Positions 6,118 to 24,803 of a DNA stretch of 32,000 nucleotides are shown piece after piece. Within the stretch, counting starts at the first letter, position 1, and each line of letters starts with the position of its first letter. The DNA is taken from assembly GCA_964554415.1 (NCBI GenBank), contig CAZKON010000005.1, positions 1-32,000 on the forward strand, written 5' to 3'. Position numbers and translations under genes: made by a program. The notes below the pieces were generated by a model, which searched no databases, was not told the origin of the DNA, and saw nothing but the letters and a program-made list of their open reading frames with translations. The stretch is from Candidatus Woesearchaeota archaeon. Lineage in GTDB: Archaea > Nanobdellota > Nanobdellia > Pacearchaeales > GW2011-AR1.

Positions 6118-6138
6118 TCCCCCTGTTTGCTATTTGGG

Positions 6139-6179: not shown

Positions 6180-6203
6180 TAAAGCTACAACACAGCATTA
6201 CCT

Positions 6204-6404: not shown

Positions 6405-6463
6405 ATTGTTGGCAGGGTGCTCACGGTTGGGAAGGGCTTCTCCATGCCGACAGGGAGAAACAG

Positions 6464-6835: not shown

Positions 6836-6947
6836 AACGATCTGTCACCCTCCCGTCATCGCCTGACTTTTTAACCTCTGCAACCCCCCTTCAATGTTAT
6901 AAGCAATCGCGCTCAACAGACCATATCAGGTTAATATGCCAAAACCA

Positions 6948-6990
6948 TCAGAAATCGCTGGTTTCTGAGGCCTCAAGAACTGAAGGTTCT
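6948..6990. repeat. Two hairpin modules (TCAGAAA-TCGCTGG-TTTCTGA; AGAAC-TGAAG-GTTCT)
   Basis: Read directly. Same stem family as the other intergenic modules. Confidence 0.7.
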
Positions 6991-7040
6991 CTCAGTGTCC
7001 AGATGCTTCCTCTCGATTTAATACTTTTCGTCAATCTACA

Positions 7041-7054
7041 GAAAGGTTTAAATA
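7041..7054 (+). promoter_or_regulatory. BRE/TATA (GAAAGGTTTAAATA) for the MNT/HEPN operon
   Basis: The TTTAAATA centre is 27 nt upstream of ATG 7077. Confidence 0.6.
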
Positions 7055-7076
7055 CTTTATTACTAACATAAGTAAT

Positions 7077-7637
7077 ATGTTGCTAGATAAGAATACTCTC
7101 TGCATTTTAGGAGCATTTGCTTCCGATTATACGAAAAAGATCTATGGAAGTGACTTGGCAAAAAAACTGAACATGAATCAAAAGACAGTCTCAAATATTT
7201 TAAATAAGCTCGAGAAAGAGCACATCCTTAAATTCGCAATCGAAGGAAAGAACAAATACTATTACTTCAACAAATTTAATAGTCACATCAGAGAAATTGT
7301 AAAACTCATAGAAATAGGTAGAAAAATAGCGTTTCTAGAAAAATATAAGCACTTACAAGATCTCTTTAAAGAACTGGAAGAGCGATCTAAAGGGATTGTG
7401 GTTATTTTTGGAAGTTACGCGAAGGGTGCGCCTACGAAGAGTTCTGACCTTGACGTTTTTCTGATAGGTTCTTGTTCAAATGTGGAGAATCTGGAAACGC
7501 TCTACAATCTGAAAATAAACATTATATTCTCAGAAAAAAAGAAATTTGATAAAAACGAACCCTTCATCAAAGAAATTATAAAGAGTCATATTGTACTTAA
7601 AGGGGTAGAAGAGTTCGTAGAATTACTATGGCAGTAA
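7077..7637 (+). CDS. wHTH-fused minimal nucleotidyltransferase (MNT-type antitoxin-like)
   Basis: N-terminal winged-helix-like segment (LAKKLNMNQKTVSNILNKLEKEHIL) plus NTase motif GSYAKGAPTKSSDLDVFL. Confidence 0.8.
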   Translation: MLLDKNTLCILGAFASDYTKKIYGSDLAKKLNMNQKTVSNILNKLEKEHILKFAIEGKNKYYYFNKFNSHIREIVKLIEIGRKIAFLEKYKHLQDLFKELEERSKGIVVIFGSYAKGAPTKSSDLDVFLIGSCSNVENLETLYNLKINIIFSEKKKFDKNEPFIKEIIKSHIVLKGVEEFVELLWQ

Positions 7638-8101
7638 CATTGCGCTGGTGCTGTACAAATGAGAATGGGCTTAAGCTCGATACGCCGAGTGAAAACCTTG
7701 CACAAGGATATCTCACACTTGCTGAAAATGCTTTAGGAACCATGAATCGAGAAAGAAACTACAATCGCCAATTTGCGATCTCTGCTTGTTATTATTCTAT
7801 GTATTATGCCTTGTACGCAATTCTCATGAAATTAGGTATCAAATGCGAGATTCATTCATGTACTCTTGAATTCATGAAGAAACTACTCAAAGACTTCTAT
7901 GCTCCAGAAGACATGCAAGCAATTAAGAAAGCATTTGATTGTAGGGAAACTGCACAATACTATGTGGACAGAATCGTCACAAAGGAAGATGAGATGTATA
8001 TTATGGCTCAAGCTCCTCTTTTCATTACTAAATCCAAAGAAATTCTCGCCAAGCTCAACGAGAACGACATTCAGAAAATACGAGACGAGTTAAAAAAGTA
8101 A
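7628..8101 (+). CDS. HEPN domain protein (partner of the MNT)
   Basis: Overlaps the MNT gene by 10 nt. Helical HEPN-like pattern ACYYSMYYALYAILMKLGIKCEIHS. I did not see a clear RxxxxH motif. Confidence 0.7.
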   Translation: MAVTLRWCCTNENGLKLDTPSENLAQGYLTLAENALGTMNRERNYNRQFAISACYYSMYYALYAILMKLGIKCEIHSCTLEFMKKLLKDFYAPEDMQAIKKAFDCRETAQYYVDRIVTKEDEMYIMAQAPLFITKSKEILAKLNENDIQKIRDELKK

Positions 8102-8298
8102 AAGAGAAGCGTTAATCAGACATTTCATAAAATTTCGTTCCTTCACCTAGATTTTCTATGTAGACTAAAAGAAAATCCTCAGATAAATCGGATTGAAGAA
8201 GTGATAGCAAAGATATATAACCTTCAATGTATGCAGAGTTCTACAAATAATTAAGAGCACTTCGTAATCTTACGATTCTGCCAAGATGATGCTAAGCT

Positions 8299-8311
8299 TC
8301 TTCCCCGCATT
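8299..8311 (+). repeat. 13-nt direct copy (TCTTCCCCGCATT) of the tRNA-Leu 3' end and flank (2120-2132); candidate att remnant
   Basis: Exact match read directly. It lies in non-coding DNA. Confidence 0.4.
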
Positions 8312-8491
8312 ATACTATTCTGGCATTTCTGTCCGAATCATCTGTTCTGTATCGAGCGTTTATAAACACCGTATGTGGGGCAAACTGATGGCAAGGCAAG
8401 ACCTTAGTGTATTGAAGAACAATAAAAAGTGTAACTACTAAATAATTACCATAATGAAAAGATTTAAATACCCTTAATTTGTAAAGAATAT

Positions 8492-9331
8492 ATGAAAGCT
8501 CGTAAATTGTTAAGAAACTTGCCTATGAGTTTGCTCTTCGGAGTAACTGCCTGCCATACATCGATGCCTGCTTCAAGAATAGTTACAAAAGGCCCAATGC
8601 ATTATAATAATCAGACATCAATACCTGCTTCAGGAATAGTTACAAAAGACACAATGCATTATAATAACAACTTGGCACTTCCGAATTTGACAGTTGAAAA
8701 AGAAGCTCGAACCAATACAATGAATATTGCAGGCATATTTTATGCTGACAGTAATCAAGCGAGTATCTACGAAACAAACCGGACTAGATTCAATCGAACA
8801 AACGAGTTGCCGTTTGTGGCGTTTCTCATTACTGATATGGAAACGACAAAAGACCCAGTGAGAAAAATAGGGATCAACAGAAATGATGTATTTGTGTTCG
8901 AAGCAATAACAAATGCTCAAGGTAGCTATAAGGGTCTTAAAATGGGAACTAACGGTCCAAACGGAATCAAAATAGTGCGAAAATTCAGGACCGCAAGCAC
9001 GAATAATCCTCTTGAAGTTGTTACGTCCTTAGAATCTGTGTTTGACAAAGATTTATACCGTCCAAATATATTAGGCAAGCCGTACTTCACACCTTTAGTA
9101 ACAGATAAAGAATTAGCTGATACAAATGTTTTCCCAAGGTTGCATATTCCAGGAAACAATAAGTATAGAGAAAATATTGAAGGTTCAATTACCTTTGAAG
9201 GTCCTATCTTTAAAGGTCAACGTATGAAATACGCAGATTATATAACACGCACAAACATTGTTGCTATTCCAACAAATGCTCTGCCGGGATACTCAACTGG
9301 TCAAGCAACTGATTACGTCGACAACCCTTAA
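8492..9331 (+). CDS. Secreted protein with lipobox-like signal (LLFGVTAC), 279 aa
   Basis: The TATA box (8463-8470) is 27 nt upstream of the ATG. Hydrophobic N-terminus ends in Cys. Contains an internal 19-aa tandem duplication. Confidence 0.65.
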   Translation: MKARKLLRNLPMSLLFGVTACHTSMPASRIVTKGPMHYNNQTSIPASGIVTKDTMHYNNNLALPNLTVEKEARTNTMNIAGIFYADSNQASIYETNRTRFNRTNELPFVAFLITDMETTKDPVRKIGINRNDVFVFEAITNAQGSYKGLKMGTNGPNGIKIVRKFRTASTNNPLEVVTSLESVFDKDLYRPNILGKPYFTPLVTDKELADTNVFPRLHIPGNNKYRENIEGSITFEGPIFKGQRMKYADYITRTNIVAIPTNALPGYSTGQATDYVDNP

Positions 9332-9343
9332 TTCTTATGAGTT

Positions 9344-12300
9344 TTACGGATTCTCTACATACTCTTCGCCATATCCAAATGTCCCTGACGATGAAGGCTC
9401 TGCCAATATCTGAATACTTCCACTAAATAAATCTGCGTATTTCTTTCCCTGCAAAGCAAGGAGATGATTGTGTATCACAATTGGAAGAGAGAGTGCGTTA
9501 ATCACTGATTCTTCTATGTTGATAATACCGTACTCGCTCACACTCCCGATTTTCTGTACTTGTGTCTCTGTTTTGATACGTATAAAGAATGTGTTACCAA
9601 TCAAATAAATGTCTAGTGGTATCTCTCCAGCATAAACAATATCCGCAGAAACACCATCAGGCGTTTTGCCAGCATGAAGGGAATAAACACCAACATCTTT
9701 TGCTTCACTGGAAGATTTTTCTTTGACTTCTTGATTCAACTCAGGCAGTTTTTCAGTCATGCGCTCTTTTTTCAGCAAATGTATCTCCGCAAGCTGTCGT
9801 GCAATTGCAGAATATACTCTCCCTTCAAGATACAAAAGCTGAGCTTTGTGATAATTCAGATATAATGAATTTCTTACAGTTCCTGCTCTTACAAGGATTG
9901 CCTGAATTTCAGTCAATTCAGATGTAGTAAGATTCCCTCCTCCTCGCGCGCTGAGACTTGTTTCCACATGTTCAACACTGCCCTGAAGCGCGTTAAGTTC
10001 TGTATTCGCCTCTTCTTCTCTTAACAGCACACCTCCTTTCTCCAGATTCTCTCTTTGTACTTTTTCCAGAGCTTGCAGAGTCGCATTTTTAACACCCAGA
10101 TTATTATCAGTGATTGCATTATCAACACTTTTTTTGTCAAGCCAGCACATAACTTTCTCTCCATCACATCGCCCGACAGGAACGAATCGCGTAGGCTCAG
10201 TTCCTGTTCCAGGATTTTCAGTTGCACAAATGCGGACTACTCCTCTTCTATAGATTTCAGGATTAAAAGCTTCCTGTGCTCCCTGTTGCAAATTAGGATT
10301 CAGCAAGGCAGTTGCACTTGTGCTTCCGCTGATGCATTCTTTTTCAGATGTAACAGTGCTTTCCTTGATTTGCTCAGCTACAATTGCATCTCTGACATAA
10401 TTTACTGCAAAACTTGTTGAAACCTGCTTAAACCCGCACTTTTCTTCACCGTTAAGATTAACACAAAGTTCTTGGTATCCTTCAGGAGCAGTGAAATCAC
10501 GAGTCTCATCTCTATAATCCCCTTTCTTTACAAATCCAGAAGCAACCTGAATAATAGGGCTTACAGCATAATATGATGATTGTGGTGGGCTCTTCAGATA
10601 AACTCGGTAATAAGCTCCCTGATCTTTGCCTGCGTATAGGTGATAATAAACTTTGTAGTTTGCAGTAGCAGGTATAGTTACATCACTGTATTTAACACTG
10701 CTAAAGTAAGCATGAAACTGTGGCGGACTGTCAGGAGCTAATACTGTCTTTAGCGATGTAGGTGCCCTCATAGATATAAAGCTCTTGCAGAATTCCCCGC
10801 CAGCTTCCTCAACAGAACGCGCTTGGAATGCCTTAAACGCATTCACACCATATACCTGAGTGAAGTAATTAACAGATTGCTGCATATTCTGCCAGGCACC
10901 CATCACAGTCAGATATTCTCCTCCGCCTCGCACTCCCTGCCCATAAGCAGTCTCAAGCAGTCTTGGCACTAGCACTTTTGCCAGGGGGGCAAGTTGTCTC
11001 CAGAAGAATTCGCAAGTATAAACCGAATAAAGCTGGTCGCAAATTCCGACTAATTGTCCGCTCTTTACGCTCTCTTGTAAGCAATCTCTATGTGCTTTCA
11101 ATATAGAAACATAACTATCTATGCCTGCATGAATGCCAGTAAGGCACACAGGAACCTTCACCTCTGGAAAGTTTGGCATGCAAAGCAGCGTGCTTCCGAT
11201 TATTCCTGACTGCACCACATCCGCAACAGGATACTTCCCCCCGAAATCGCAGCGTGTAGCAGGACAGATAACAGGGTCGCATAAGTTAAATATCAAATTA
11301 CATTCGCCAGGGGACATAAAGTCTTGGCATTGCGCAGCAGGCACGCTTACTGCAGGCTTGCCAACTCTAATGTCTCCAGTTCCTGCAATAGTAACTCTGC
11401 TGTTTCCATGTTGTCTTGCCGCCTGCTCAAGTGCCTCGCGTGCGCGCACAACAAGTGCACGTGCCTCTTCATCGCTCAATCCAGGGAACTTATTCAAAGG
11501 CTGTCCAGTTTGCAGATTTACCATCTCACATACGTCATCGCCTAAACCCTCAAGGAACTGTTCTCTTTTGTTTGCCCCGACATTGCAAAGCCAGAAACTA
11601 GTCGCTCGTCCAGATGCGTCGAAAGCTCCAATGCCCCCGAATGCAGGCAATATCTGTTTTGCAGCAGCATACCATCCACGTTGCAAATCAAAAGGCACAA
11701 TCGCAGGCATACCTTTATAAGGTTCTCTGTCGTAGAATTTTACTTCAGGATTTTCATATTTATTGAAATAAGATAGCTGTTGTTGTGAGTATAATGTACC
11801 TAATCCATACGTATTAGAAAAAGTTGCAGGAGATATTTCATTCAGAGTATCTCCATCATGAATACTATAAACCTCATTTGCTCCGCTGCCCTCTTTCTTC
11901 ATTACGCTCCGTATAGTATATGCTCCATTGCCCGCATCCTGCAAACCAAGAAGGTATGTGCCTCCGCTGTACTGCTTCCCATCTTTAGACGACGCAGGAG
12001 GTACAACAACACTTGCAAGATGAGTCACTCCATCTGCAAAAACCATGTCTGCCTTGCTTCCGCGTTGCACAGCGCTCACAGGAGCAACTTCAACATATCT
12101 CTCTCCTTGGCTTTTCGGCGTTGCAGTAAACGGAGAAGGGAATCCTTGCGCTCTAAGTGATTGTTCAGATTTATATTTCTCCGTCAAAGCATGATTAATG
12201 CTGATGCTTGAGCCGATTGTTTCAAGTCTCTGCTCGACATTTGCCTTAGTGCCGTTAGAGATGCCGCTGTTTTTCTGCAGCAATAAATTTTGATGCAATT

Positions 12301-14851
12301 CACGCAATGAATCATAACTATATTCTCCATCTTCATATCCTCTAGAGTTTGCGAGCAGCTCTTTCACAGGAACAGACCTTACACCTTTAGAGTCTTTGAT
12401 TTGTACCATATCCTCACCATGATTATCAAGCAGATACTGGCGATATTTTGGCACAGACTGGCTTGGCTCAATTGAACTGCTCAAAAATCCCGAAGTTTTA
12501 GGCACGCCTGCCTCGGCTTCTTTGATAGCTGAATTTACTTTCTGAATCTGTGCGTCAGCTATTTGCACATCACGATTTATTTCATCAGCATGCTTGCTAA
12601 AACACGCATCAAGTGATTTTGATGCCCCACTTGATACTTCTACTTGGCATCTGGCAGTCCACCCTTTATCTCCGCGCATTATTTGTTGTCGTGCAAATCC
12701 TGTCCCAGATAAACCAGTCACAAAATTCTTCACAGTCAAAGCACCCGCAGTAGCAAAGCACGCACCTTTCAAGCCAGAGACAACATTCCCGAGAGTGTTT
12801 GAAATCTGCTCCCACTTCCTGATGCTTTCATTTATAGTTGCAATCTTGCTTAATGTTGCATTTGGTGCAAGTTGAATAGCACGTTTTTCAATGCCTATGC
12901 GTATAGTTACATTCGTTCTGGTTTCTGTCCCCCATGCTTGTGGAGTTAAAGTGATTCTGGCAGAACGTTGCACATCAAGGCGTTGCAGAACAACAGGCTG
13001 CCCGCACACTACAACTGATTCACCAATACGCAAAGTAGGTTTGAAGTTCCTCTGAGATTCAGCAGGACAGCTAGTGCTGACAGTTATAAAATCAGACTCA
13101 ATACGCTGAATTGTCAAAGTCCGTTTATTCTTGTCAGTGCTTTGTGGAAGTTCATAAACCGTTCCTGCCTTCACAGTCACAGCTTTTGCTCCGATAGCAA
13201 GTGTTGCACTAGATTGTTCTCTCGGTTCTTCTATTGAAACAATCCTAATAGTTCTGAATCTGCCATTTATATCAACCGCAGAAGCTGCTCTTGAGAAATC
13301 AATATGCTCGCTCCGCGCAATCTCCTGTCTGTATGCTTCACTTTCAGGAGCATTAGGATATGTAGTCACATACATCTGAAGCAAACGCAGGCGCTGCTGC
13401 TCTTTGTTAAGAGTTGTTGCTAATGCAATTGCTTCTGCCAATGCATTCTGCCCATAAGGATTCCTTGCCGCAGAAGCTTTCTCAGCAGGATAATCTCGCG
13501 CTATCTGCTCAAACGCATGCAATGCCTCGCTAAAGTTCCCTTCAACTCCTTGAACCCCTGACCATGATTGATCTATAACAATATCTTCAGGAGCTACATG
13601 ACTCTCTCTCTCAAGCTGTCTGTATGCAATCATTGTTTCCCGCAATTGCTTTGTCATAGCATTATTAATAGCGAGCCTCCACTCTCCACTTGCCCACTGG
13701 TACAACAAATCAGAAGAAGTCAGATTATATTTCACTCCTTCAATTTCTACAAGATATGATTCTCCGTCTCTATAAGGGAAATTCTTTGTCCCATCATTTG
13801 CAACAAATAAGTCAAATGTCGCAGCCCCTTTAGCTCGCAGCTGAAGAACAAGAGTCTCTGAAAGGCAGCGCAAAGTTACGTTTCCGGTTCCAACGCTGGT
13901 GTTATCAAGCCTTATACTGGAAACAGTGCATTGACCATTTAAAATCCTGCTCCCTTCATAAACATCTACTACATCTGTGCTGTTGCTGCTTGTAATAGCT
14001 AGCCTTACTCGAGTCTGGCTGGCTTCATATCCAGTATAATCAACATACAATGCTGCACGGCAATAGCTCTCCGGCACAAATATCTCGCGTGACCTTGTTC
14101 CTTTTTCAACATGAGTAGTAGCAATTTGCCTGTCCCCGCTATAAATTGAAATATCTGCACCGCGCTCATCTGCATTTAATAACCTAATAAAATATTTCCC
14201 GTTCCAGAAGCTTTGGCGCTGGCTTTTATCAGACCATGCAAAATCATTCTGTTCTTCCAGCACAAACTCAGTTCTCCCGATGCCCAGTGCATTGCCTGCA
14301 TCATATTCAAGCCGCCCGCTTAAGTTAACAACTACTGATTCAGGTAATTCGCTTTCTCGTGGCTGCTTTTGAAGAACAATAACAGCATATCCTATATTAT
14401 TCAAAAGTGGGTCCCCCAGCAACCTATTACGAGTCACCAATCCGGCGCGCGCAGGGTGGAATCCAACAGCCACAACACCTTTTGGATACTCTTTATCAAA
14501 TCCAATACTCTTAATTTCTTTTACATTAAGAAGTGGGTTGATTTTTAACGCGTCAATCTGGCAGAATACAGGCACGTTTTGTTCTGCAAGCAAATCGCTT
14601 CTCACAACAGCAGGCTGGCATCCGGCAGGAGCGACCTGCAAGACAAAATCTTCCCGGTTCTTGCACTGAGAAGAATCATCTAAAATAGGCCAATAAGTGT
14701 TTGCCTGCGCACCATAATATGTTTGAAAACTTGCTTGATAGCTCGGTCTCGTCACATAAGTTGCAGAGCTATAAACCTGCGCGTTGGCAAAAACCGTGAA
14801 TAAAACAATAAAAATACAAATCAAAAATAACAGAATCGCATATCTTCTCAT
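9344..14851 (-). CDS. Giant secreted protein (1835 aa), family not recognised
   Basis: Uninterrupted 5.5-kb ORF with a Sec-type signal (ILLFLICIFIVLFTVFANA-QV). Its start overlaps the upstream stop as ATGA. No C-terminal TM segment. Confidence 0.9.
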   Translation of the reverse strand: MRRYAILLFLICIFIVLFTVFANAQVYSSATYVTRPSYQASFQTYYGAQANTYWPILDDSSQCKNREDFVLQVAPAGCQPAVVRSDLLAEQNVPVFCQIDALKINPLLNVKEIKSIGFDKEYPKGVVAVGFHPARAGLVTRNRLLGDPLLNNIGYAVIVLQKQPRESELPESVVVNLSGRLEYDAGNALGIGRTEFVLEEQNDFAWSDKSQRQSFWNGKYFIRLLNADERGADISIYSGDRQIATTHVEKGTRSREIFVPESYCRAALYVDYTGYEASQTRVRLAITSSNSTDVVDVYEGSRILNGQCTVSSIRLDNTSVGTGNVTLRCLSETLVLQLRAKGAATFDLFVANDGTKNFPYRDGESYLVEIEGVKYNLTSSDLLYQWASGEWRLAINNAMTKQLRETMIAYRQLERESHVAPEDIVIDQSWSGVQGVEGNFSEALHAFEQIARDYPAEKASAARNPYGQNALAEAIALATTLNKEQQRLRLLQMYVTTYPNAPESEAYRQEIARSEHIDFSRAASAVDINGRFRTIRIVSIEEPREQSSATLAIGAKAVTVKAGTVYELPQSTDKNKRTLTIQRIESDFITVSTSCPAESQRNFKPTLRIGESVVVCGQPVVLQRLDVQRSARITLTPQAWGTETRTNVTIRIGIEKRAIQLAPNATLSKIATINESIRKWEQISNTLGNVVSGLKGACFATAGALTVKNFVTGLSGTGFARQQIMRGDKGWTARCQVEVSSGASKSLDACFSKHADEINRDVQIADAQIQKVNSAIKEAEAGVPKTSGFLSSSIEPSQSVPKYRQYLLDNHGEDMVQIKDSKGVRSVPVKELLANSRGYEDGEYSYDSLRELHQNLLLQKNSGISNGTKANVEQRLETIGSSISINHALTEKYKSEQSLRAQGFPSPFTATPKSQGERYVEVAPVSAVQRGSKADMVFADGVTHLASVVVPPASSKDGKQYSGGTYLLGLQDAGNGAYTIRSVMKKEGSGANEVYSIHDGDTLNEISPATFSNTYGLGTLYSQQQLSYFNKYENPEVKFYDREPYKGMPAIVPFDLQRGWYAAAKQILPAFGGIGAFDASGRATSFWLCNVGANKREQFLEGLGDDVCEMVNLQTGQPLNKFPGLSDEEARALVVRAREALEQAARQHGNSRVTIAGTGDIRVGKPAVSVPAAQCQDFMSPGECNLIFNLCDPVICPATRCDFGGKYPVADVVQSGIIGSTLLCMPNFPEVKVPVCLTGIHAGIDSYVSILKAHRDCLQESVKSGQLVGICDQLYSVYTCEFFWRQLAPLAKVLVPRLLETAYGQGVRGGGEYLTVMGAWQNMQQSVNYFTQVYGVNAFKAFQARSVEEAGGEFCKSFISMRAPTSLKTVLAPDSPPQFHAYFSSVKYSDVTIPATANYKVYYHLYAGKDQGAYYRVYLKSPPQSSYYAVSPIIQVASGFVKKGDYRDETRDFTAPEGYQELCVNLNGEEKCGFKQVSTSFAVNYVRDAIVAEQIKESTVTSEKECISGSTSATALLNPNLQQGAQEAFNPEIYRRGVVRICATENPGTGTEPTRFVPVGRCDGEKVMCWLDKKSVDNAITDNNLGVKNATLQALEKVQRENLEKGGVLLREEEANTELNALQGSVEHVETSLSARGGGNLTTSELTEIQAILVRAGTVRNSLYLNYHKAQLLYLEGRVYSAIARQLAEIHLLKKERMTEKLPELNQEVKEKSSSEAKDVGVYSLHAGKTPDGVSADIVYAGEIPLDIYLIGNTFFIRIKTETQVQKIGSVSEYGIINIEESVINALSLPIVIHNHLLALQGKKYADLFSGSIQILAEPSSSGTFGYGEEYVENP

Positions 14852-16710
14852 GTGAATACCACCTCTGCTCGTTGCAGTGCAAATAATTCATAATTTGTCT
14901 GAAGCTGCGTCAGCGTTGTTGGTTTAGGTAAGGCAGGCACACTAATCTCCAGTGTTCCCTTTTCTAGTTCTGCAGGAAGAAGATAAGCACTTACACTTCC
15001 TCCGCCAACAAGAGCAGTATCAACCTTTGTTTCAGGCAGGTTAATATCATAACATTGCTCACGAGTTCCTCCAAACAATCCTGCAAAACCTGAACGAGGT
15101 ATAGTTGTGCATTCTCTGCTTGTGCTTGCAGGAATCGTAACGCCTGCATTGCCATATACATAAACAGTAATATTATAAGCACCCTCGCTAAGGCTGACAT
15201 TCTTCACTTCAGGATATACAACGCTGGTAGAGCCAGGACCTTCGAATGAAATAAGAATCAGTCCGGAAGTATTGGTTGCTCCGATAATTTCAACATCAAG
15301 ATTCAAAGTATATACTCTATCAAGAATAATTGTGCTTTCTTGAGAATCTACGCTTGAGAAAATTTGGCGTTGGGAAGCATATCCTTCAGCACTAACAGAA
15401 AGATAACCATTAAGGCATCCTGGAATCACTCCTTCAACACGACCTCCGGCACTCTTCCCAATCTGACAAATCTGATCAAAACAAGCGTATGCAACTTCTG
15501 CACCATCAATCGGCTTAAGCAGCACATCTCGGACATTTACGCTAACTGGTTGCGAAGCAAATGCGCATAGCTCTTCCTGCTCTTGCTCTTCAGCAATAGA
15601 TTGAGGGGATGCTTGTCTTGGAAGATTGTTATCTACACTCACAACCAAAGGAAATTGAAATAACTCATCATCTCTCGAGAGCTGCACCATGACAGGATAA
15701 CTAAAATCATATACAAAATGGTATGGCGCATAGCAAAATCCAAGTACGCCAAGTCCTTGCTGCAAGCCAACAGGTTCAGCAATCATAATTTCTTGTGATG
15801 CTCCGGAAATTTCTGTTTTGCTGGGCCATTTCGTAGAATACAGGAAGCTAACATGGTCATCAACATTATGCTCAACTACAAAATACTTGTTCTGGCTATT
15901 TTGAAGAGTATAATAGTCTCCCTTCATTTTTACAGCCGCAACATTCGCAGCCAGGCCTTCATGTAATTTTGAAACAACATCGCGCGTTTTCCAGACTTTC
16001 GGCGCGCAGCTCGTCTCAACGCCATCAACAGGTGCATAAAGATACAAAACATCACTCGAGTAATTTTCCAAAAAAGCGCTTTTTTGTTCATACTGATAAA
16101 TTGACAAAGCTTGGCTGTATAGTGCTCCAAACCTGCTAGGCACTTTTATGTTATGCGTTGTCCTACGCGAGCTGCCCTTGCTATCGCTCACAACAATATT
16201 TTGATTAATGCGAACACCAATAATATTATCATTAATCTCAATATCAACTTCAGGCAGCCCCATTGTAACATTTACACCCTGCTCTGCAAATATAGAGAAA
16301 TCACATTTCTGGATTGTAGACTCAATATGCTCTGCAAGCTCCTTCTCAATATCCTGCTTTTTAGGCACATTTTCTTTGATTACTCCATTGCTGCTGGGAT
16401 ATTGCCAATAAGGCACAGGAAAACCTAAAAAGTCAAGTTGTGATGAAAAAGGAGCATAATCGCTGCCAGGAATGAAAGAAGGAGTTTTGATGTATCCTCC
16501 CTGCGTTCCGGCAAGAGTTAAAGCTGCGCGCGTTTCTAGAACAACACACTCTTCATAATACTGAAACACCTGATCCGAGACGCGCTCTCCGCCTCTGAAT
16601 TCAGAAAGCTGCCACGCAACTGCCGCAATTCCAATCACTGCAACCAAAACAATAGAAATAATCACAAAAATACTTATCTGCCCTTTCTTCCATTGTATGG
16701 ATAACCTCAT
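14848..16710 (-). CDS. 620-aa extracellular protein with prepilin-like (class III) signal peptide
   Basis: N-terminus MRLSIQWKKGQISIFVIISIVLVAVIGIAAVAW. A beta-sandwich-like segment ...GYLSVSAEGYASQRQIF resembles the CarboxypepD_reg/PEGA pattern. Confidence 0.85.
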   Translation of the reverse strand: MRLSIQWKKGQISIFVIISIVLVAVIGIAAVAWQLSEFRGGERVSDQVFQYYEECVVLETRAALTLAGTQGGYIKTPSFIPGSDYAPFSSQLDFLGFPVPYWQYPSSNGVIKENVPKKQDIEKELAEHIESTIQKCDFSIFAEQGVNVTMGLPEVDIEINDNIIGVRINQNIVVSDSKGSSRRTTHNIKVPSRFGALYSQALSIYQYEQKSAFLENYSSDVLYLYAPVDGVETSCAPKVWKTRDVVSKLHEGLAANVAAVKMKGDYYTLQNSQNKYFVVEHNVDDHVSFLYSTKWPSKTEISGASQEIMIAEPVGLQQGLGVLGFCYAPYHFVYDFSYPVMVQLSRDDELFQFPLVVSVDNNLPRQASPQSIAEEQEQEELCAFASQPVSVNVRDVLLKPIDGAEVAYACFDQICQIGKSAGGRVEGVIPGCLNGYLSVSAEGYASQRQIFSSVDSQESTIILDRVYTLNLDVEIIGATNTSGLILISFEGPGSTSVVYPEVKNVSLSEGAYNITVYVYGNAGVTIPASTSRECTTIPRSGFAGLFGGTREQCYDINLPETKVDTALVGGGSVSAYLLPAELEKGTLEISVPALPKPTTLTQLQTNYELFALQRAEVVFT

Positions 16711-16838
16711 TTCTTCACCCCGCGTCGTACTCTCTCTCGTATAAGCTCAACAATTTCACTATTGATATCCTGTTCTAAATTAACTTTAAACTTTGCCCAT
16801 AATTCTTCATCCTCAATAAGAAGCAAGTATTTCTTCAT
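16707..16838 (-). CDS. 43-aa ribbon-helix-helix-like protein (not in the ORF track)
   Basis: Minus-strand translation MKKYLLLIEDEELWAKFKVNLEQDINSEIVELIRERVRRGVKK. The stop overlaps the next ATG (ATGA). The strand-helix-helix pattern is typical of CopG/RHH proteins. Confidence 0.55.
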   Translation of the reverse strand: MKKYLLLIEDEELWAKFKVNLEQDINSEIVELIRERVRRGVKK

Positions 16839-16868
16839 GCGCCCCTCTCCAAAAAAAGCAATACAAAA

Positions 16869-16925
16869 GACTATAAAAACCTTTCTTATTTATTAAATAA
16901 GTTAGTTACTTAGTTACTAATTAGC
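16869..16925 (-). promoter_or_regulatory. BRE/TATA (GAAAGGTTTTTATAG on minus) plus upstream palindrome and direct repeats
   Basis: The TATA centre is about 37 nt from ATG 16838, implying a leader of about 10 nt (GGAGAGGGGCGC). Upstream lie a 17-nt palindrome CTTATTTATTAAATAAG (16885-16901) and TTAGTTAC x2 (16902-16917). Confidence 0.5.
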
Positions 16926-16975
16926 AATAACCTGCGTATATCATATACTTTGAAAATTTTTGATTCCTGAGCGCA

Positions 16976-17451
16976 CTCAAGAATGCAATAGTTATCATTC
17001 TTAAGATATTGAAGACTTTGAAAAACCCCTATAGAGAGCTTTGAATAACCCTCCAATTTCGATGTCCCTCGAGGGTCGTCAGAAATCCATGATTTCTGAG
17101 CGCCTCGAGACACCAAGAACTTCTGTTCTTGGATGCATTCAAAAATCAAAGATTTTTGATGATCGGAGATTCTCTTAGTTTCAAAGCGGTTCGATAGAGG
17201 ACTTTGGGGTTTTTCAAAGTCCTCTATAATATAAAAAAACGATGCGCCCTCCGCACCTTAAAACGTTAGAAACTGAAAGTTTCTGAGCGCCTCGAGAATC
17301 GGAGAGTTTCTCAGCCTCGAGAACTACTGTTCTCTACGGCCGTCAAAAACCTCTGGTTTTTGAGGGATGCGGTTTGGGGAGGCGCTCGTTTCATCAGGAA
17401 TTCTGTGAATTCCTGAATGCCATCGAGAATGCGAACGCAGAGCATTCTCGA
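16976..17451. repeat. Dense array of at least 11 short hairpin modules
   Basis: Stems read directly at 16976-17005, 17079-17099, 17113-17132, 17139-17159, 17194-17227, 17266-17286, 17319-17334, 17343-17363, 17394-17416 and 17423-17451. Confidence 0.85.
17030..17227. mobile_element. MITE-like element, copy 1 (imperfect 16-nt inverted termini TATAGAGRRCTTTGAA)
   Basis: The left end TATAGAGAGCTTTGAA and the reverse complement of the right end TATAGAGGACTTTGAA match at 14 of 16 positions. The first ~81 nt are nearly identical to 20026-20106. Confidence 0.45.
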
Positions 17452-17477
17452 GGTTTTGATGTTCAATGTTATATCTT

Positions 17478-17864
17478 TTAAGAAGATACTTTTGGCGTAC
17501 AATCCTGCGGACAATTAAAACTATGTTCTTTTTGTCCGCAGATACCATCACCGCACTTAATACATACACTATCATAAAACATATCTGGTAATCGAACGGA
17601 CCCATCTCCAATGATTTTATATTGTTTTTCTAAAGCATCCTCAACTGCAGTGAGTCCTGTGCAGCAAGGGACATCCTTTACTATTTCTGGAGGAGATACA
17701 CCTTTATAAATTAAATTTTTTTCTCCTTCTTTGGCGCATAATGATGTTTTATTACTTAATGGAAGAGGTTGCGGAAAATTACGATTATCAAAAAATAAAT
17801 ACACACCAACTATAATAAGGACGATAATAAGTGTAAACGATAGAACTACTAATTTATTATTCAT
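17478..17864 (-). CDS. Signal-anchored Cys-rich small protein (128 aa)
   Basis: I moved the start to ATG 17864, which overlaps the upstream stop as ATGA. N-terminal TM LVVLSFTLIIVLIIVGVYLFF. C-terminal motif CIKCGDGICGQKEHSFNCPQDC. Confidence 0.65.
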   Translation of the reverse strand: MNNKLVVLSFTLIIVLIIVGVYLFFDNRNFPQPLPLSNKTSLCAKEGEKNLIYKGVSPPEIVKDVPCCTGLTAVEDALEKQYKIIGDGSVRLPDMFYDSVCIKCGDGICGQKEHSFNCPQDCTPKVSS

Positions 17865-18526
17865 TTTTCTTCCTCTGCAATGCACCGTCCATCTTCGCAG
17901 AGGCATTCTATTTTTTCTGCTGCCACTCCATTTTCATCGCAGTAGTATTCAAATAAAGTATCAGAAGATAAATCTGTTCTTTGTATTGGTATGAACCTAT
18001 TCACAAAACTGAAAGGATACCAACAGAAATCAGCAAGAGTCTTTCTTCCTCCTTTGATAAGAAGCTTCCCCTTTTTATCATACTTTAGCCCACCATCAGT
18101 ATCTGTACAGAGGAAAGCCTCCTTATTCCATAATGAAACAAACACTTGAGGAGTATATCCTACAACCTCTCGTGCAAGAATGACATCAACTTGAAGAATG
18201 ATGCCCTCGTTTACATCACTTATTTTATAAGATGAACCCTCATACATTGTATCTGTAACAAACTCATTCCCTTCTTCATCTCTAATTTTAATCTTAGTCT
18301 TCTTTGAATCAACGTACTCTACAGACACAATAAAATTTTGGTTCTGGACAGTTATTTCTTGAGAATATCCTTCAGAAAGCACTATTCTCGTTGGGGCAGG
18401 ACCAGAAGTATCATTTCTCGAAATTACATTTCCAGTTAGTTTTGGTTTGAGAAGAAAGAGAGAAACTCCAATGAGCAGCACAAGAATTATAAAGAAATGG
18501 ATTTTTCTACCTTTACTTTTTCTCAT
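17861..18526 (-). CDS. Signal-anchored secreted protein (221 aa) with a Cys-rich C-terminal domain (CTDTDGG...EYYC...C.C)
   Basis: The minus-strand TATA (plus 18547-18559) lies about 27 nt from ATG 18526. Hydrophobic N-terminus FFIILVLLIGVSLFLL. Confidence 0.7.
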   Translation of the reverse strand: MRKSKGRKIHFFIILVLLIGVSLFLLKPKLTGNVISRNDTSGPAPTRIVLSEGYSQEITVQNQNFIVSVEYVDSKKTKIKIRDEEGNEFVTDTMYEGSSYKISDVNEGIILQVDVILAREVVGYTPQVFVSLWNKEAFLCTDTDGGLKYDKKGKLLIKGGRKTLADFCWYPFSFVNRFIPIQRTDLSSDTLFEYYCDENGVAAEKIECLCEDGRCIAEEEK

Positions 18527-18731
18527 GATAACGTTAAGTATATCTATCTTTTTATATGTTTGTTTTTTCTCTAAATTATAGCCAAGAAATTTAATAATTG
18601 AATAGTTAGTCGTTAGCTATAGCATGATAGCGTATGCTTAAAAATCACCTTCGTTTTTAATAGAAAAACATTTGGCTCACCTATAGAAAGTTGAAATTCA
18701 ATCCGAAGGTTGAAACCTTTAAGGGTTTCTT

Positions 18732-19325
18732 TCAACTACTTGTCATAAAATCAATGCTTTTGTTGTGATGTACCGCTATAAACGCAATAAGTCCGCATAA
18801 TAAAAAAAACATCATCGCCAAGTTAATGATAACAGGCATATCTAAGCGTAAGATTGAAGTACCACTCTCTGCGCGTACACTTTCCAGAAGCCCATTATTC
18901 CTCAGAGCATTCTCTGAAACATTTACGACAATCCAGGTTCCAATTCCACCTATACTCTGGGCAGGTTGCATCAAAAGCACCCCTCTATAAATCCCGGATT
19001 CTTTACTGACAACACAAAAAGGTATAGAAAAACTTCCAGCATTTACCCATACTATCTCAGGATGCTCAACAATTAAACCAACATCGCGAGCTGAAAAAAA
19101 ATAATCTTCCAGATTTCTGCTTGGATTAGCTGACCAAGCGCTTTGCAAAAGAAGTGCATCACTGCCATATACAGAAACATCAAAAGCAGTACAATTTGGG
19201 GTTCCGGCAGTATTCTGCAAAAATATATCTGGAGGAGCGCTAATTTCAATAGCGCAAGCAGGAGGTACAAAGAATAAAGCACAAATCAAAAAGAATAATC
19301 TGATTACACTTTTGTCCGAAGCCAT
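18732..19325 (-). CDS. Secreted protein with a C-terminal TM anchor (197 aa)
   Basis: Signal peptide ending PPACA-IE. C-terminal hydrophobic segment INLAMMFFLLCGLIAFIAV. Lies 6 nt downstream of the preceding gene. Confidence 0.7.
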   Translation of the reverse strand: MASDKSVIRLFFLICALFFVPPACAIEISAPPDIFLQNTAGTPNCTAFDVSVYGSDALLLQSAWSANPSRNLEDYFFSARDVGLIVEHPEIVWVNAGSFSIPFCVVSKESGIYRGVLLMQPAQSIGGIGTWIVVNVSENALRNNGLLESVRAESGTSILRLDMPVIINLAMMFFLLCGLIAFIAVHHNKSIDFMTSS

Positions 19326-19331
19326 AATAAT

Positions 19332-19784
19332 TTACACAGCAGTCGCCCAGAACACGACAGTCGCACGATGGTTGGGAATATTCTGGGGTATGCTATCAGT
19401 ATACTGACGCAAATCTAATTGCGCGTAGAAGTAATCATCTTCACTCTGCCCAATGGCACGAGGACGTGGGATATTCATTTTGAATGTCCCTATTGGCTTG
19501 AATTCTTCAGTAGTCCGTCTGGCGAGAATTAAATTAGAAAAAATTTTATCCTGTGTTTCTAGCCGTGGAATAAATTGAACAGCAGTCGTGCCGGTATTAT
19601 TGACAACTATCTTAACCCTTTCAGAAACAAATCCGGGGCTTACCCTGCCAAAAGAAACCATCTCTGGAACTTGCACGCGCACAACCGGCGCAAGTACATT
19701 CGCATCTACAATCATGCGCTCGCTTTGTTCAGCAGCAGCGAAAGGCACTAAGAAAAAAATAAATGCAAGCAACCAATATCTCAT
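19332..19784 (-). CDS. Small secreted beta-rich protein (150 aa)
   Basis: I moved the start to ATG 19784. The minus-strand TATA (plus TATTTAAA, 19806-19813) is 26 nt away. Signal MRYWLLAFIFFLVPFAAA-EQ. Confidence 0.7.
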   Translation of the reverse strand: MRYWLLAFIFFLVPFAAAEQSERMIVDANVLAPVVRVQVPEMVSFGRVSPGFVSERVKIVVNNTGTTAVQFIPRLETQDKIFSNLILARRTTEEFKPIGTFKMNIPRPRAIGQSEDDYFYAQLDLRQYTDSIPQNIPNHRATVVFWATAV

Positions 19785-19939
19785 TATATACAAAAGCAGT
19801 AAATATATTTAAATCTTCGTATATAAATTATATACGAGCTTAATCCATTATACCCTCTCGTTCCTCTCTTGCTGCGGAGTTCCTCGGCTAAAGAGCTGCG
19901 GACTTCCTCGCTGCGGAGTCGCTGCGCTAACTCGCCACA

Positions 19940-20010
19940 TGGCCCTGCCCAGAATCGAACTGGGGCTTCGTCCACGTCAAGGATGCGTTCTACCATTAGA
20001 CTACAGGGCC
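19940..20010 (-). tRNA. tRNA-Val (anticodon GAC)
   Basis: Acceptor GGCCCTG/CAGGGCC, T arm CCCAG-TTCGATT-CTGGG, anticodon loop TTGACGT. My hand fold leaves one A.C pair in the anticodon stem and one C.A pair in the D stem. Confidence 0.8.
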
Positions 20011-20025
20011 TTCTTTCTGCAAGCG

Positions 20026-20257
20026 TATAGAGAGCTTTGAATAACCCTCCAATTTCGATGTCCCTCGAGGCTCGTCAGAAATCATGGATTTCTGAGCGCC
20101 TCGAGAATCGGAGATTCTCTTAGTGTCAAGAACCACCCACTGAAGTAGGTGGCGTGTTGTGGTTCTTGAGCACAGTCAAGAATTACGTTTGCGCAATCCC
20201 CCTACTTTAGTTTGTGGTTAAGCAAACGTAATTCTTGATGTTTCAAAGTCCTCTATA
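20026..20257. mobile_element. MITE-like element, copy 2 (same termini as 17030-17227, different internal hairpin cargo)
   Basis: Left end identical to copy 1 for 45 nt. Right end TTCAAAGTCCTCTATA. Interior holds hairpins at 20075-20095 and 20126-20169, and a 17-bp stem at 20176-20192/20222-20238. Confidence 0.45.
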
Positions 20258-20307
20258 ACTATATAGCTAACGACATTAAAATCTGATTGTTTTGTCGTTA
20301 GCTATCA

Positions 20308-20497
20308 AGTGAAAGACGTACAATATTGTTTATTACATTTTGAGTTGAATACTCCGCAGCTTGCTGCTGCTCAAAATGTAATTAGAGAATTCCGTCTTGA
20401 ACCGAGTGCAATACCCCGCAGCTTGCTGCGGAGAGAGCGAAGCGAACGATGGGATGCACGAGGTTAGGAATTCTCTTTATTACTTACGTCTTTCACT
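20308..20497. ncRNA. Candidate structured element or RNA (multi-stem, about 190 nt), strand unresolved
   Basis: Five nested perfect stems. P1 is 20308-20320/20485-20497 (13 bp). P2 is 20332-20344/20370-20382 (13 bp). P3 is 20384-20393/20467-20476 (10 bp). P4 is 20400-20410/20455-20465 with a tandem G.A/A.G. P5 is 20416-20421/20426-20431. Confidence 0.3.
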
Positions 20498-20530
20498 ATA
20501 TATAAGTCTTTTTCTTGAGGCTGAAATAAG

Positions 20531-22081
20531 CTAATCCATGCGTAAAACTAAAGTTCCCTTCCTCACAAGTTTTTTCATCTCAGTTTCAGTTAATTTATAG
20601 GGAGAATGTAATAAAGGCCTGAATTCGATAAAATATGGAGACCCTTTGTTATAATCCGCACATTCTGCCATGCCCAAGCCAGTAGGTAATTTAGCGATGA
20701 GATTGCTGATAACTGCTCCATGTCTTTCTCTTACACGTTTGATATCACCTTCATATCTCGTATGCACCTGTATCTCCGTGCCTATGTTTCCTCTGATAGC
20801 TCCTTTAAAGTCAGTCAGTACCTGTGAAATCATCAGCAATCCAATGCCCCACTTCCTGAATTCACGCACAGCCTGCTCAAGTTTTGTGTATGCCTTTCTA
20901 CCTCCATACTTCGGCAGCAGTCTGTGAACTTCGTCAAGTACAAGCAAGGATTGCAATGAGCCTGATTCTGGCAAGTTAGCACTATAAATCTGACTTAAAG
21001 CAGCATCAATAAATTCATCAACTTTACGGGGAGTCAGCTTATCAAGGCGGAACACAGTCATGCCTTTCATGAAAAGATAATGTATAATGTCAACATGCAT
21101 TGTTGCATCAGTAATTTCAATAACATATGGATTAAACGCTTGAGGAAGTCCAAGACCAAATTTATTATATTTCTTGCGCATACGTTCATCTGTATTCTTC
21201 TTAGCAAATCCCGACCATTGCCCAATCGGATCAAAGACAATAACAGGCAAGCTGCGTTTCAATAATTCTTCAGCAATAACCATCCCTGTAATTGTCTTCC
21301 CGCTTCCAGTACCTCCGGCAATCAAAGTGTGTCTGTTCAATTGCGTATGATCCAGATACGCTTTCTCATCGCTGTCAGCAACAATTCCAACGTATGCATA
21401 TTTTGATTGTGGAAGCGTAAAAAAGTCAGGGAAAGGATACTGGCTGTTTTTCTGTCTCTCTTCGTATTTTTTCTTAAGCAAGCCTTTTCTAAGCCAAAAA
21501 ACATAGTAAACTCCGGCGAATATAACAAAAGAAGCAGCAGCAATGCTAAGAAAGAAAGAAAGATGTTCCTGCAGCCATGGCGTTGCAATCATACGCTCAA
21601 TAGTAATAGGATAAGATATTATAACAGAATTTTGAGAAGTGCTTATATTGACTAAAAAAACATAATTCCCCTCTGGAACAACATCTGGCAATCCCAAACG
21701 GCTTGTTAAAATAAAAGACTCATTCTTGTCAACTCTCTCATCTTTCCGTAGAAAGCTCTGGTTGCTATTCGCGTTAACAATTTCATAAATAAAGATAAAA
21801 GGCTCAGTATTTTCCTGATTCGCACGTGTTACATTAACGCTAAAAAGAATAGCCCTGCCAGGAGAAACTTGAGAGCCGCGGGCAACCTGTAAAGAAACAT
21901 TTGCCAGTACACCTCCCTCCGCATTAGTCAGCACTCCAGTCAAAGAAGATTGAGATTTTGGCTCCAGTGGAAATGATACACGTCCGAATGCTCCAATAAT
22001 TGATGAATTGTACACCCACGCAATAATAAGAATACCTAATATCAAAGTGAAAACAAAAAAAATGATTTTATTTTTTGGCAC
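20531..22081 (-). CDS. Membrane-anchored HerA/FtsK/VirB4-like P-loop ATPase (DUF87-type), 516 aa
   Basis: Walker A IAGGTGSGKT, Walker B LLVLDEVH, RKWGIGLLMISQ block. Two TM segments (residues ~5-25 and ~175-197) flank a predicted external domain of about 150 aa. GTG start preceded by GGTGAG. Confidence 0.85.
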   Translation of the reverse strand: MPKNKIIFFVFTLILGILIIAWVYNSSIIGAFGRVSFPLEPKSQSSLTGVLTNAEGGVLANVSLQVARGSQVSPGRAILFSVNVTRANQENTEPFIFIYEIVNANSNQSFLRKDERVDKNESFILTSRLGLPDVVPEGNYVFLVNISTSQNSVIISYPITIERMIATPWLQEHLSFFLSIAAASFVIFAGVYYVFWLRKGLLKKKYEERQKNSQYPFPDFFTLPQSKYAYVGIVADSDEKAYLDHTQLNRHTLIAGGTGSGKTITGMVIAEELLKRSLPVIVFDPIGQWSGFAKKNTDERMRKKYNKFGLGLPQAFNPYVIEITDATMHVDIIHYLFMKGMTVFRLDKLTPRKVDEFIDAALSQIYSANLPESGSLQSLLVLDEVHRLLPKYGGRKAYTKLEQAVREFRKWGIGLLMISQVLTDFKGAIRGNIGTEIQVHTRYEGDIKRVRERHGAVISNLIAKLPTGLGMAECADYNKGSPYFIEFRPLLHSPYKLTETEMKKLVRKGTLVLRMD

Positions 22082-24316: not shown

Positions 24317-24769
24317 ATGATATTCCTCCACCTTATCTTCGGGCTTGTTGTAGGCAGCCTTTATGGAAATTATACGTTATTTTTTATTGGAGCGTCCATG
24401 CTTCCTGACATCGACCATTTCTATTTGATTTTAAAGCACAATCTCTTCTCCATAAGAAGTGCTATCAAAGTTCTCAAAAAAGAGGAACGGCACGGTATTC
24501 ACTTCAAAACCCCATTCATGCATTCCATCTTCGGTCTCCTTGTATGTTCGCTTCTTTTTTTTGTCATAACACAGAACTCAAAGTTAACACTCTTCCTTGG
24601 GCTCATGTATCTCTCTCATCTCCTCCTCGACTGGCCGGATATCGATAAAAAACAATATTTCTTCCCTTATAAAAAAGAGTTTAGAGGATTCCTCCCTATC
24701 TGGTCAAAAACAGAGAAGATTATTACGTTAATTGCACTGGTCGCCGTAGCCATTATTTACATGCTATAG
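24317..24769 (+). CDS. DUF457/YdjM-like membrane-bound metal-dependent hydrolase
   Basis: Multi-TM protein with PDIDH, HS and DWPDID motifs. Starts 2 nt after the ftsY stop. Confidence 0.6.
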   Translation: MIFLHLIFGLVVGSLYGNYTLFFIGASMLPDIDHFYLILKHNLFSIRSAIKVLKKEERHGIHFKTPFMHSIFGLLVCSLLFFVITQNSKLTLFLGLMYLSHLLLDWPDIDKKQYFFPYKKEFRGFLPIWSKTEKIITLIALVAVAIIYML

Positions 24770-24803
24770 AGGATTTTGACAAACCCCTAAAGTCCTCCAT
24801 AGA
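24765..24803. repeat. Solo hairpin related to the MITE termini (TATAGAGGATTTTG-ACAAACCCC-TAAAGTCCTCCATAGA)
   Basis: Imperfect inverted arms. The loop AAACCCCTA is shared with 17021-17031. It overlaps the TAG stop of the upstream gene. Confidence 0.6.

Follow-up and report, generated by a model that had tools for sequence, protein, structure and literature searches.

Which kind of element fills the spacer between positions 16976 and 17451 of this DNA, where short hairpins stand one beside the other, and why do similar hairpins recur in other spacers of the same window? The window is the whole stretch of 32,000 nt analysed here, taken from a contig of a Candidatus Woesearchaeota archaeon. The original prediction, made from the sequence, had described a family of modular hairpins and offered two explanations: a repeat system in the style of repetitive extragenic palindromes (REP) and miniature inverted-repeat transposable elements (MITE), or a set of binding or processing sites for some factor. 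The former is supported by terminal inverted repeats, a duplicated TA, presence or absence of insertions between relatives, nesting and copies on other contigs. The latter is disfavoured by stems that covary, loops that range from 3 to 43 nt, a lack of strand asymmetry and copies placed in a 5' leader and in a coding region. It is likely, in our judgement, that the array belongs to a lineage-specific family of non-autonomous palindromic mobile DNA, MITE- and REP-like, for which this spacer has served as graveyard and nesting site.

The array and its two layers of repeats

Comparison of the window with itself showed that the modules described at first are pieces of longer repeats, organised in two layers. 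One is a MITE, called MITE-A here; the other consists of REP-like stem-loops, which form the core of MITE-A and also stand alone. At least 11 hairpins side by side in 480 nt had been claimed, and an inverted-repeat scan of 16976-17453 located ten clean ones, with stems of 8-13 bp and loops of 3-10 nt, and an imperfect eleventh:

16976-17005, no strand assigned: solo REP-like stem-loop CTCAAGAATG / CATTCTTAAG, 10 bp with one mismatch, loop of 10
17079-17099, no strand assigned: 9 bp, the core hairpin H1 of MITE-A, cg-TCAGAAATC cat GATTTCTGA-gcgc
17113-17132: hairpin of 8 bp
17139-17159: hairpin of 9 bp
17194-17227, no strand assigned: 13 bp, perfect, in which an internal segment resembling a MITE end pairs with the true right end
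17266-17286: hairpin of 9 bp, one T.G pair
17292-17314: the imperfect eleventh hairpin
17317-17336: solo REP-like hairpin, 8 bp with one mismatch
17340-17366: solo REP-like hairpin, 12 bp with one mismatch
17394-17416: solo REP-like hairpin, 10 bp
17421-17453: solo REP-like hairpin, 12 bp with one mismatch

Seven perfect stems of at least 8 bp lie between 16940 and 17478, whereas 500 dinucleotide-preserving shuffles average 0.13 and never exceed 2 (loops of 3-10 counted); stems of at least 9 bp number six, against 0.03, so that the frequency of hairpins in the array is far above that of shuffled sequence. For the whole window the figures are 18 perfect stems of at least 8 bp against 4.8. The folding z-score of 16960-17460 is -10 on each strand, with energies of -196.7 and -197.3 kcal/mol for the two strands.

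The common stem signature was recovered too. Its 5' arm YCRRRRAY, which by our own arithmetic represents 0.1% of all 8-mers, occurs in 13 of the 25 perfect intergenic hairpins of the window. Perfect 8-bp stems with this arm number 13 in the 32-kb window and 2 in the 822 kb of 113 unrelated control loci, the signature stem YCRRRRAY/RTYYYYGR being about 170 times commoner in the window than in these unrelated genomes. The pattern of purine-rich 5' arms and pyrimidine-rich 3' arms is accounted for by many stems being transition variants of one ancestral hairpin. The linkers said to recur do so in part: GAGCGCCTCGAGAATCGGAGA is present exactly twice (17285, 20094), whereas TTCTCTTAGTGT occurs once and only its first 10 nt twice. 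The other sites listed in the original prediction all exist; however, that at 24765-24803 is not a TCA...TGA module but a 39-nt mini-copy of the MITE ends, and the hairpins at 566-585, 626-645 and 1811-1830, although real, are the G+C-rich inner hairpins of longer units. Longer homologies had been overlooked, for instance that between 17030-17110 and 20026-20106, the first 81 nt of the MITE-A copies 17030-17229 and 20026-20258, which are 95% identical.

MITE-A measures 147-233 nt (full copies of 147, about 190, 200 and 233 nt), its canonical form being the 147-nt one of a Woesearchaeota metagenome-assembled genome (MAG). The ends read TA-TAGAGRRCTTTGAA, as terminal inverted repeats of 14-17 nt found at both ends of all full copies. 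The core is made of two adjoining hairpins, H1, cg-TCAGAAATC-N3-GATTTCTGA-gcgcc, and H2, TCGAGAATC-gga-GATTCTCTYAG. The copies and remnants of MITE-A in the window are these:

17007-17029, no strand assigned: orphan MITE-A terminus TATTGAAGACTTTGAAAAACCCC, an inverted copy of the right end 17206-17228
17030-17229, plus strand: MITE-A copy 1, 200 nt, ends TATAGAGAGCTTTGAA ... TTTCAAAGTCCTCTATA, sharing homology with 20026-20258 and with the canonical 147-nt copies of loci L073, L076 and L114
17111-17161, no strand assigned: two-hairpin block, CCAAGAAC and TCAAAAATC, inside H2 of copy 1
17266-17314, plus strand: end-less MITE-A core fragment with H1 TTAGAAACT/AGTTTCTGA, linker GCGCC and a degenerate H2
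20026-20258, plus strand: MITE-A copy 2, 233 nt, with 44-nt and 63-nt long hairpins nested before the right end
24765-24803, no strand assigned: mini MITE-A of 39 nt, two ends only, between convergent genes

Besides copy 1 the array thus holds an orphan MITE end, an end-less core fragment and five solo hairpins, four of which (17317-17453) come immediately after the stop codon (17478) of the open reading frame (ORF) 17478-17906. Nesting can be followed in both large copies. A 52-nt block within H2 of copy 1, an insertion when compared with the canonical copy, recurs inverted at 1842-1894, and the 44-nt unit of copy 2 recurs inverted at 609-652 with 92% identity. In the MITE-A copy of the relative L124 the core is duplicated in tandem and its two H1 stems differ; altogether, copies contain from one to four internal hairpins. 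Four of five features of MITEs were found: short non-coding size (39-233 nt, crossed only by spurious ORFs), terminal inverted repeats, target duplication, and dispersed copies, with three copies plus fragments in the window and five full or partial copies on four MAG contigs. Within 20011-20045 of the window, MITE-A starts at a distance of 16 nt ahead of the tRNA-Val 5' end. Its own TATAG end takes the place of a TATA-like stretch of the relative L120, and the element may now supply the promoter element of that tRNA gene.

The REP-like units follow the consensus YG-TCRRRAAYY-loop-RRTTYYYGA-GCRC. They occur solo, as dimers, in conserved multi-hairpin blocks of 130-400 nt and nested in one another; some are arranged head-to-tail and others inverted, and the distances between them vary. 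Perfect units number 46 over about 102 kb of lineage DNA, in which L127 partly duplicates L124, versus 2 in the 822 kb of controls; they are thus high-copy extragenic stem-loops of 20-40 nt, as REPs are. The asymmetric flanks YG|TC...GA|GCRC accompany 32 of the 46, the TC being paired with the GA and the tail not being CCA. In alignment A2 the positions C5, G6 and C8 are each conserved in at least 90% and T7 is invariant. Blocks outside the array and the MITE-A copies are:

538-652, no strand assigned: pair of long hairpins, one unit of 65 nt (TCGAAAATCC...GGATTCTCGA) and one of 44 nt (TCAAGAACCAC...GTGGTTCTTGA), homologous to L105 4001-4124
1790-1975, no strand assigned: block of several hairpins downstream of TFB, missing in the relative L124
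6948-7000, no strand assigned: H1-type hairpin (one T.G pair) and a degenerate second hairpin
29212-29261, no strand assigned: short block of two hairpins, TTAGGGAT and TCAAGAATC, with homology to L114 5926-5975 and 6480-6527

The order of hairpins within blocks is kept between loci: L073 2493-2620 and L114 6327-6452, on opposite strands, are 86% identical over 128 nt, and L105 4006-4123 and L114 6440-6584, again on opposite strands, 77%. Long versions of the units have an A/T-rich outer stem of 10-17 bp and an inner G+C-rich hairpin with a CTNNAG loop. The short versions would be the same units minus loop DNA, as suggested by comparing L114 5926-5975 with L114 6492-6581. The 65-nt unit of 538-652 extends over the end of rpS8e, its last codons and stop codon. 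Homology to relatives ends 15 nt before that stop (window 538-552), and 55 nt before the stop of the gene for a 197-aa protein (window 18732-18786); both genes owe their C-termini and stop codons to inserted repeat or foreign DNA.

Further hairpin families were seen. Family C (window 28930-29303 and 20263-20320; L105 4314-4360; L114 1176-1225 and 5040-5086) has perfect 14-bp stems that vary between copies (ATAGGGAATCACAT, ATAGAGAATTCTGT, ACAGAGAATTTACT); its loops are rich in A and about 19-22 nt long. Family D (window 20332-20440 and 19860-19930; L114 5820-5931; L076 45-221) has an inner CCGCAGCTTGCTGCGG hairpin and a 13-bp outer stem; four positions of that stem differ between the window and the MAG, transversions included, and are perfectly compensated in both. 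Families C, D and a GAAAAT-type, found in the spacers that also hold the H1 hairpins, share perfect stems of 13-14 bp whose sequence varies between copies.

Distribution and mobility

A scan of genome contigs for the repeat 17-mer TTTCTGAGCGCCTCGAG gave four matches in one MAG, "Ca. Woesearchaeota archaeon SRP178908_co1_358" (CAZCXX01), from which four 8-kb loci were taken; among the matches listed, nearly all others were single, in unrelated taxa and consistent with chance. The four contigs of this MAG, which is either that of the window or a close relative, all carry MITE-A (95-98% identical segments) together with arrays of like hairpins, and such arrays lie also in spacers that the search had not selected. 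Syntenic contigs of a relative, with 83-89% DNA identity, were recovered through flanking proteins, and the relatives L124-L128 proved to carry the family too. The modules are therefore not confined to the window. Their description as genome-wide holds as far as the fragments reached, which extend beyond the window and cover less than a complete genome. That a relative might be wholly devoid of the family, as the loci L120-L122 taken singly could suggest, was ruled out, other loci carrying elements at different sites.

Occupied and empty sites could be compared at five places:

Spacer between the 197-aa and 43-aa genes: 1.86 kb in the window, including the whole array; 35 nt in the relative
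Downstream of tRNA-Val: 117 nt extra in the window; none in the relative
Spacer from tRNA-Val to HerA: about 475 nt extra in the window; 59 nt in the relative
Spacer from TFB to tRNA-Leu: about 250 nt extra in the window; about 65 nt in the relative
TFB 5' leader: empty site in the window (766-772); MITE-A of about 190 nt in L124 (9797-9992)

The entire stretch 20026-20498 is absent from the relative L120. In the TFB leader the window reads CCA-TA-ATAA and L124 reads CCA-TA-[GAGAGC...CCTCCA]-TA-ATAA, a comparison from which duplication of a TA target follows; a TA adjoins 14 of the 17 termini classed as outer ends. Insertion is not limited to spacers, since in the Woesearchaeota MAG a canonical 147-nt MITE-A (L073 3767-3913) lies in frame, as 49 codons, inside the gene for glucose-6-phosphate dehydrogenase (G6PD; ORF L073 2708-4186), and the extra segment is visible in the alignment to solved G6PD structures. 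Outside the lineage the family is hardly seen. The exact 21-mer linker matched nothing in JGI metagenome contigs or IMG/VR, a 24-mer of the MITE-A left half matched one JGI contig and nothing in IMG/VR, and blastn of the array against phage and plasmid collections gave no match. Hence the family is restricted to a narrow lineage, and nothing visible ties it to viruses or plasmids.

Stem covariation and competing explanations

Fourteen H1 copies were aligned together with their conserved flanks. In this alignment 98.4% of the cells are paired, changes on both sides occur at four of the nine pairs, all of them exchanges between GC and AU, and the observed covariation was reached by none of 500 shuffles; shifting the partner by one column lowers pairing to 51-58%. 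Strand asymmetry was sought in G.T versus A.C pairs and in the folding of both strands, and none was seen: single non-Watson-Crick pairs on the plus strand comprise four G.T and four A.C, and 16 units are oriented forward and 16 reverse. Loop length, or half-site spacing, extends from 3 to 43 nt. Complementarity itself is maintained, with no pointer to one RNA strand.

Taken as mobile palindromic DNA, the family could have spread as follows. MITE-A inserts at TA and duplicates it, and a transposase encoded elsewhere would recognise its ends. Copying of hairpin blocks to new spacers, their insertion into one another and their tandem duplication are visible in the comparisons above; the blocks might also shrink through loss of loop DNA down to minimal 20-nt hairpins. 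The folded hairpin rather than its sequence would be what is recognised or selected, as single-stranded DNA during mobilisation or possibly as RNA, because compensatory transitions keep the arms complementary. The elements are tolerated downstream of genes, between a stop codon and the next promoter, and most of them are for that reason probably co-transcribed as hairpins of 3' untranslated regions (UTR); an mRNA-stabilising effect of such hairpins is speculation.

Several observations weigh against this reading. The TA duplication rests on one clean pair of empty and filled sites, and the left end of the L124 copy in the filled site is without the extra TA found elsewhere. Neither defined ends nor a target duplication could be pinned down for the hairpin blocks, whose presumed route of spread is transposition, the alternatives being recombination and slippage. 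Copies were counted on fragments, and four of these owe their recovery to the repeat. Pfam detected no transposase among the 49 ORFs of the window and the four MAG loci (about 64 kb), nor is there one in the precomputed Pfam annotation of L120 and L124 (about 37 kb), and a scan for termini over about 125 kb of lineage DNA revealed no autonomous element with MITE-A ends. Finally, mismatch or wobble intermediates are very few despite the divergence of the copies, which simple selection does not obviously predict.

The strong covariation of the stems, their very stable folds and their position just past stop codons, before oligo-T tracts, would also be expected if the hairpins were functional RNA elements selected by the host and merely duplicated, namely 3' UTR stabilisers against 3'-5' decay, processing sites or small RNAs; for REPs of bacteria, transcription and an influence on the stability of mRNA have been reported (PMC3733652). 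This explanation appears rather unlikely, since the two strands fold equally well, single non-Watson-Crick pairs are evenly split between G.T and A.C, orientations are balanced, copies are also present in a 5' leader and, in frame, within a coding region, the sites lack conservation among relatives, and no match to Rfam was obtained; a secondary benefit to the host may exist all the same.

The units might alternatively be a true population of REPs or REP doublets forming hairpins (REPINs), moved via single-stranded DNA by a single-copy HUH tyrosine transposase (the REP-associated RAYT, or IS200-like), MITE-A being in that case a composite of units. The CGTC or TGTC at one end and GCRC at the other in 32 of the 46 units resemble the superfamily of REPs tagged with CGTC (PMC3733652), REPINs too have been described with compensatory changes and in ordered clusters (PMC3116915), and K07491 (RAYT) is the only transposase entry of KEGG orthology with strict matches in 256 Nanobdellota proteomes (bioRxiv 10.64898/2026.05.13.725050). 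However, the defining tag is unpaired, and in the present units its TC takes part in the stem; the stems start without the two A-T pairs, the tail is not CCA, no RAYT was found in the lineage DNA screened, and no Y1/HUH domain was detected among the ORFs screened in the window and the four MAG loci. The TA duplication of MITE-A points, moreover, to a different mechanism; IS200/IS605-type transposition is not known to leave a duplication. We give this origin a small chance.

Interrupted palindromes such as TCAGAAATC-N3-GATTTCTGA resemble operators, and E. coli REP elements and bacterial interspersed mosaic elements (BIME) bind IHF and gyrase, as would be expected of double-stranded DNA sites for a dimeric protein, be it a regulator, a nucleoid protein or a topoisomerase. 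Such a role is very improbable, because the half-sites vary by compensating changes instead of being conserved, their spacing runs from 3 to 43 nt, and clusters of 10 or more are unrelated to promoters, none lying in divergent promoter spacers. Chance in an AT-rich spacer or an assembly artefact of metagenome binning, which the origin of the window from a MAG and the breakage of short-read contigs of the same species near repeats might evoke, can practically be dismissed: shuffles fail to reproduce the hairpins, unrelated loci nearly lack them, the same elements are present in independent JGI, ENA and NCBI assemblies, and a Logan contig is 99.97% identical over 24765-24803.

Some known classes were considered separately and rejected. 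The original prediction held that oligo-T termination does not explain the arrays, and this stands: a terminator scan of 16700-17600 yields one site versus 0.6 expected. Intrinsic terminators, G+C-rich stems with a T run directly behind them, are likewise not supported, the hairpins of the family being A/T-rich and having no T run after them. With Rfam 15 the gathering threshold is passed by three tRNAs and by nothing else, and the next best matches have E-values of 0.17-0.79. Strings such as TGATGA and CTGA brought C/D-box small RNAs to mind, and a regular-expression scan shows no C/D/C'/D' arrangement. A CRISPR array is discarded by repeats that are inverted, not direct, and irregularly spaced.

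Genomic setting, known relatives and significance

The window encodes rpS8e, TFB, FtsY, SRP54, a RIO kinase, a GINS subunit and three tRNAs. The 620-aa protein encoded beside the array has more than 1000 homologues, those named coming from Pacearchaeota, Nanoarchaeota or Woesearchaeota MAGs, and TFB clusters at 90% identity with proteins of Pace-, Woese- and Nanoarchaeota MAGs. Gene content and homologues thus place the window in the chromosome of a DPANN archaeon of Nanoarchaeota/Woesearchaeota type; Methanosarcina, which the G+C content had brought to mind, was rejected on the protein homologues. Its elements occupy co-directional or convergent spacers only, and none of the four promoter-only divergent ones; they usually lie directly 3' of a stop codon, and the next gene keeps a promoter region of about 120-130 nt. 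They add up to about 1.8 kb, or about 36% of the intergenic DNA of the window. Coding density is 84% in the window, and about 90% of the genome is coding in Nanobdellota (bioRxiv 10.64898/2026.05.13.725050). The array itself is split by one feature:

17233-17239, minus strand (the transcribed strand): T7 tract, a candidate oligo-T terminator of the upstream minus-strand genes

The segment 17258-17453 is probably 3' UTR.

Other features of the surrounding DNA deserve mention. Two overlapping small ORFs at 17478-18526 (142 and 221 aa), with hydrophobic N-terminal segments, Cys-rich C-termini and no Pfam match, arrived together with the array in the 1.86-kb segment absent from relatives. A region of about 7.2 kb (2131-9343), from tRNA-Leu to the gene of a giant protein, encodes a DNA methylase (2564-3388) and an MNT/HEPN pair (7077-8101) and includes a stretch of 48-51% G+C, versus about 40% elsewhere; it is absent from the syntenic L124, where an RHH/PemK pair succeeds tRNA-Leu, and is probably an island integrated beside the tRNA gene. 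On the minus strand, 9344-22081 is a conserved DPANN cluster without known domains, comprising a HerA-like ATPase, small membrane proteins, the 43-aa and 620-aa proteins and the giant protein, which has 1835 aa in the window and 2003 aa in relatives. The motif AAAGGTTTAAATAC, common to 701-734 (upstream of TFB) and 7019-7056 (upstream of the MNT gene), is likely the consensus promoter of the organism, a TFB-recognition element (BRE) with a TATA box.

Among known systems, the Correia elements of Neisseria (CREE/NEMIS) and Stowaway-like or IS630-derived MITEs are non-coding, about 100-200 nt long, have inverted repeats starting with TATAG and insert at TA, which they duplicate; Correia elements are dense in spacers and are co-transcribed with neighbouring genes. 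MITE-A is like them in size, TATAG ends, TA duplication and density in spacers, and differs in its archaeal DPANN host, in showing no sequence relationship to them and in a core of REP-like hairpins that also live outside the MITE. In the BOX elements of Streptococcus pneumoniae (boxA-(boxB)n-boxC), conserved end modules, complementary in part, surround a variable number of internal hairpin modules. The modular build of MITE-A, with its copies of 147, 190, 200 and 233 nt, is alike, although sequence and host are unrelated and the internal modules also exist independently of the end modules. Archaea do have other non-autonomous elements in their spacers, the Sulfolobus SM1-4 and the haloarchaeal MITEs/PATEs, which to our knowledge have not been described as arrays of covarying mini-hairpins. 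Rickettsia palindromic elements (RPE), palindromes of about 150 nt, lie in frame in protein genes, as the 147-nt (49-codon) MITE-A does in the G6PD gene; here, however, there is one in-frame case and most copies are intergenic. RPE-4 and RPE-6 have been counted among the CGTC REPs (PMC3733652).

The REP-like units, for their part, are like the REP/BIME/REPIN-RAYT systems and the CGTC REPs (Di Nocera et al. 2013, PMC3733652; Bertels & Rainey 2011, PMC3116915) in being stem-loops of 20-40 nt with 8-9 bp stems and short loops, which have CGTC or TGTC at one end and end in a short tail on the other side. In both, subfamilies differ in stem residues that remain complementary, dimers and large clusters are formed, and the units stand between genes that are co-directional or convergent, some copies being inside genes. 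The units described here differ in having half of the tag base-paired and stems rich in A/T instead of G+C, and no RAYT was found in the DNA screened. REPINs have so far been reported only from bacteria. In a census of MITEs, a Woesearchaea genome, not necessarily of this lineage, is among the archaea richest in them, with 105 per Mb (PMC11602168).

It is conceivable, if doubtful, that the hairpin units are the first archaeal counterpart of REPs and REPINs, mobilised in single-stranded hairpin form within a reduced DPANN genome by an HUH tyrosine transposase that has been domesticated, and/or that some arm-to-arm correction keeps four unrelated hairpin families perfectly complementary while they drift. 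If either were true, DPANN spacers would be a place to study hairpin-based DNA replicators outside bacteria.

As mobile palindromic DNA, which remains the likely explanation, the family is selfish DNA of a familiar kind that is hardly described in archaea. Such DNA would be a visible force on the architecture of the small, dense DPANN genomes of this lineage: the elements rewrite the ends of genes (rpS8e and the 197-aa gene), sit in the TFB 5' leader of a relative and add 49 residues to a G6PD. Short-read assemblies break at the repeats, with consequences for the quality of MAGs, and the elements can be used as strain markers. Moreover, the covarying REP-like family offers a concrete place to look for REPIN-type replicators in archaea.

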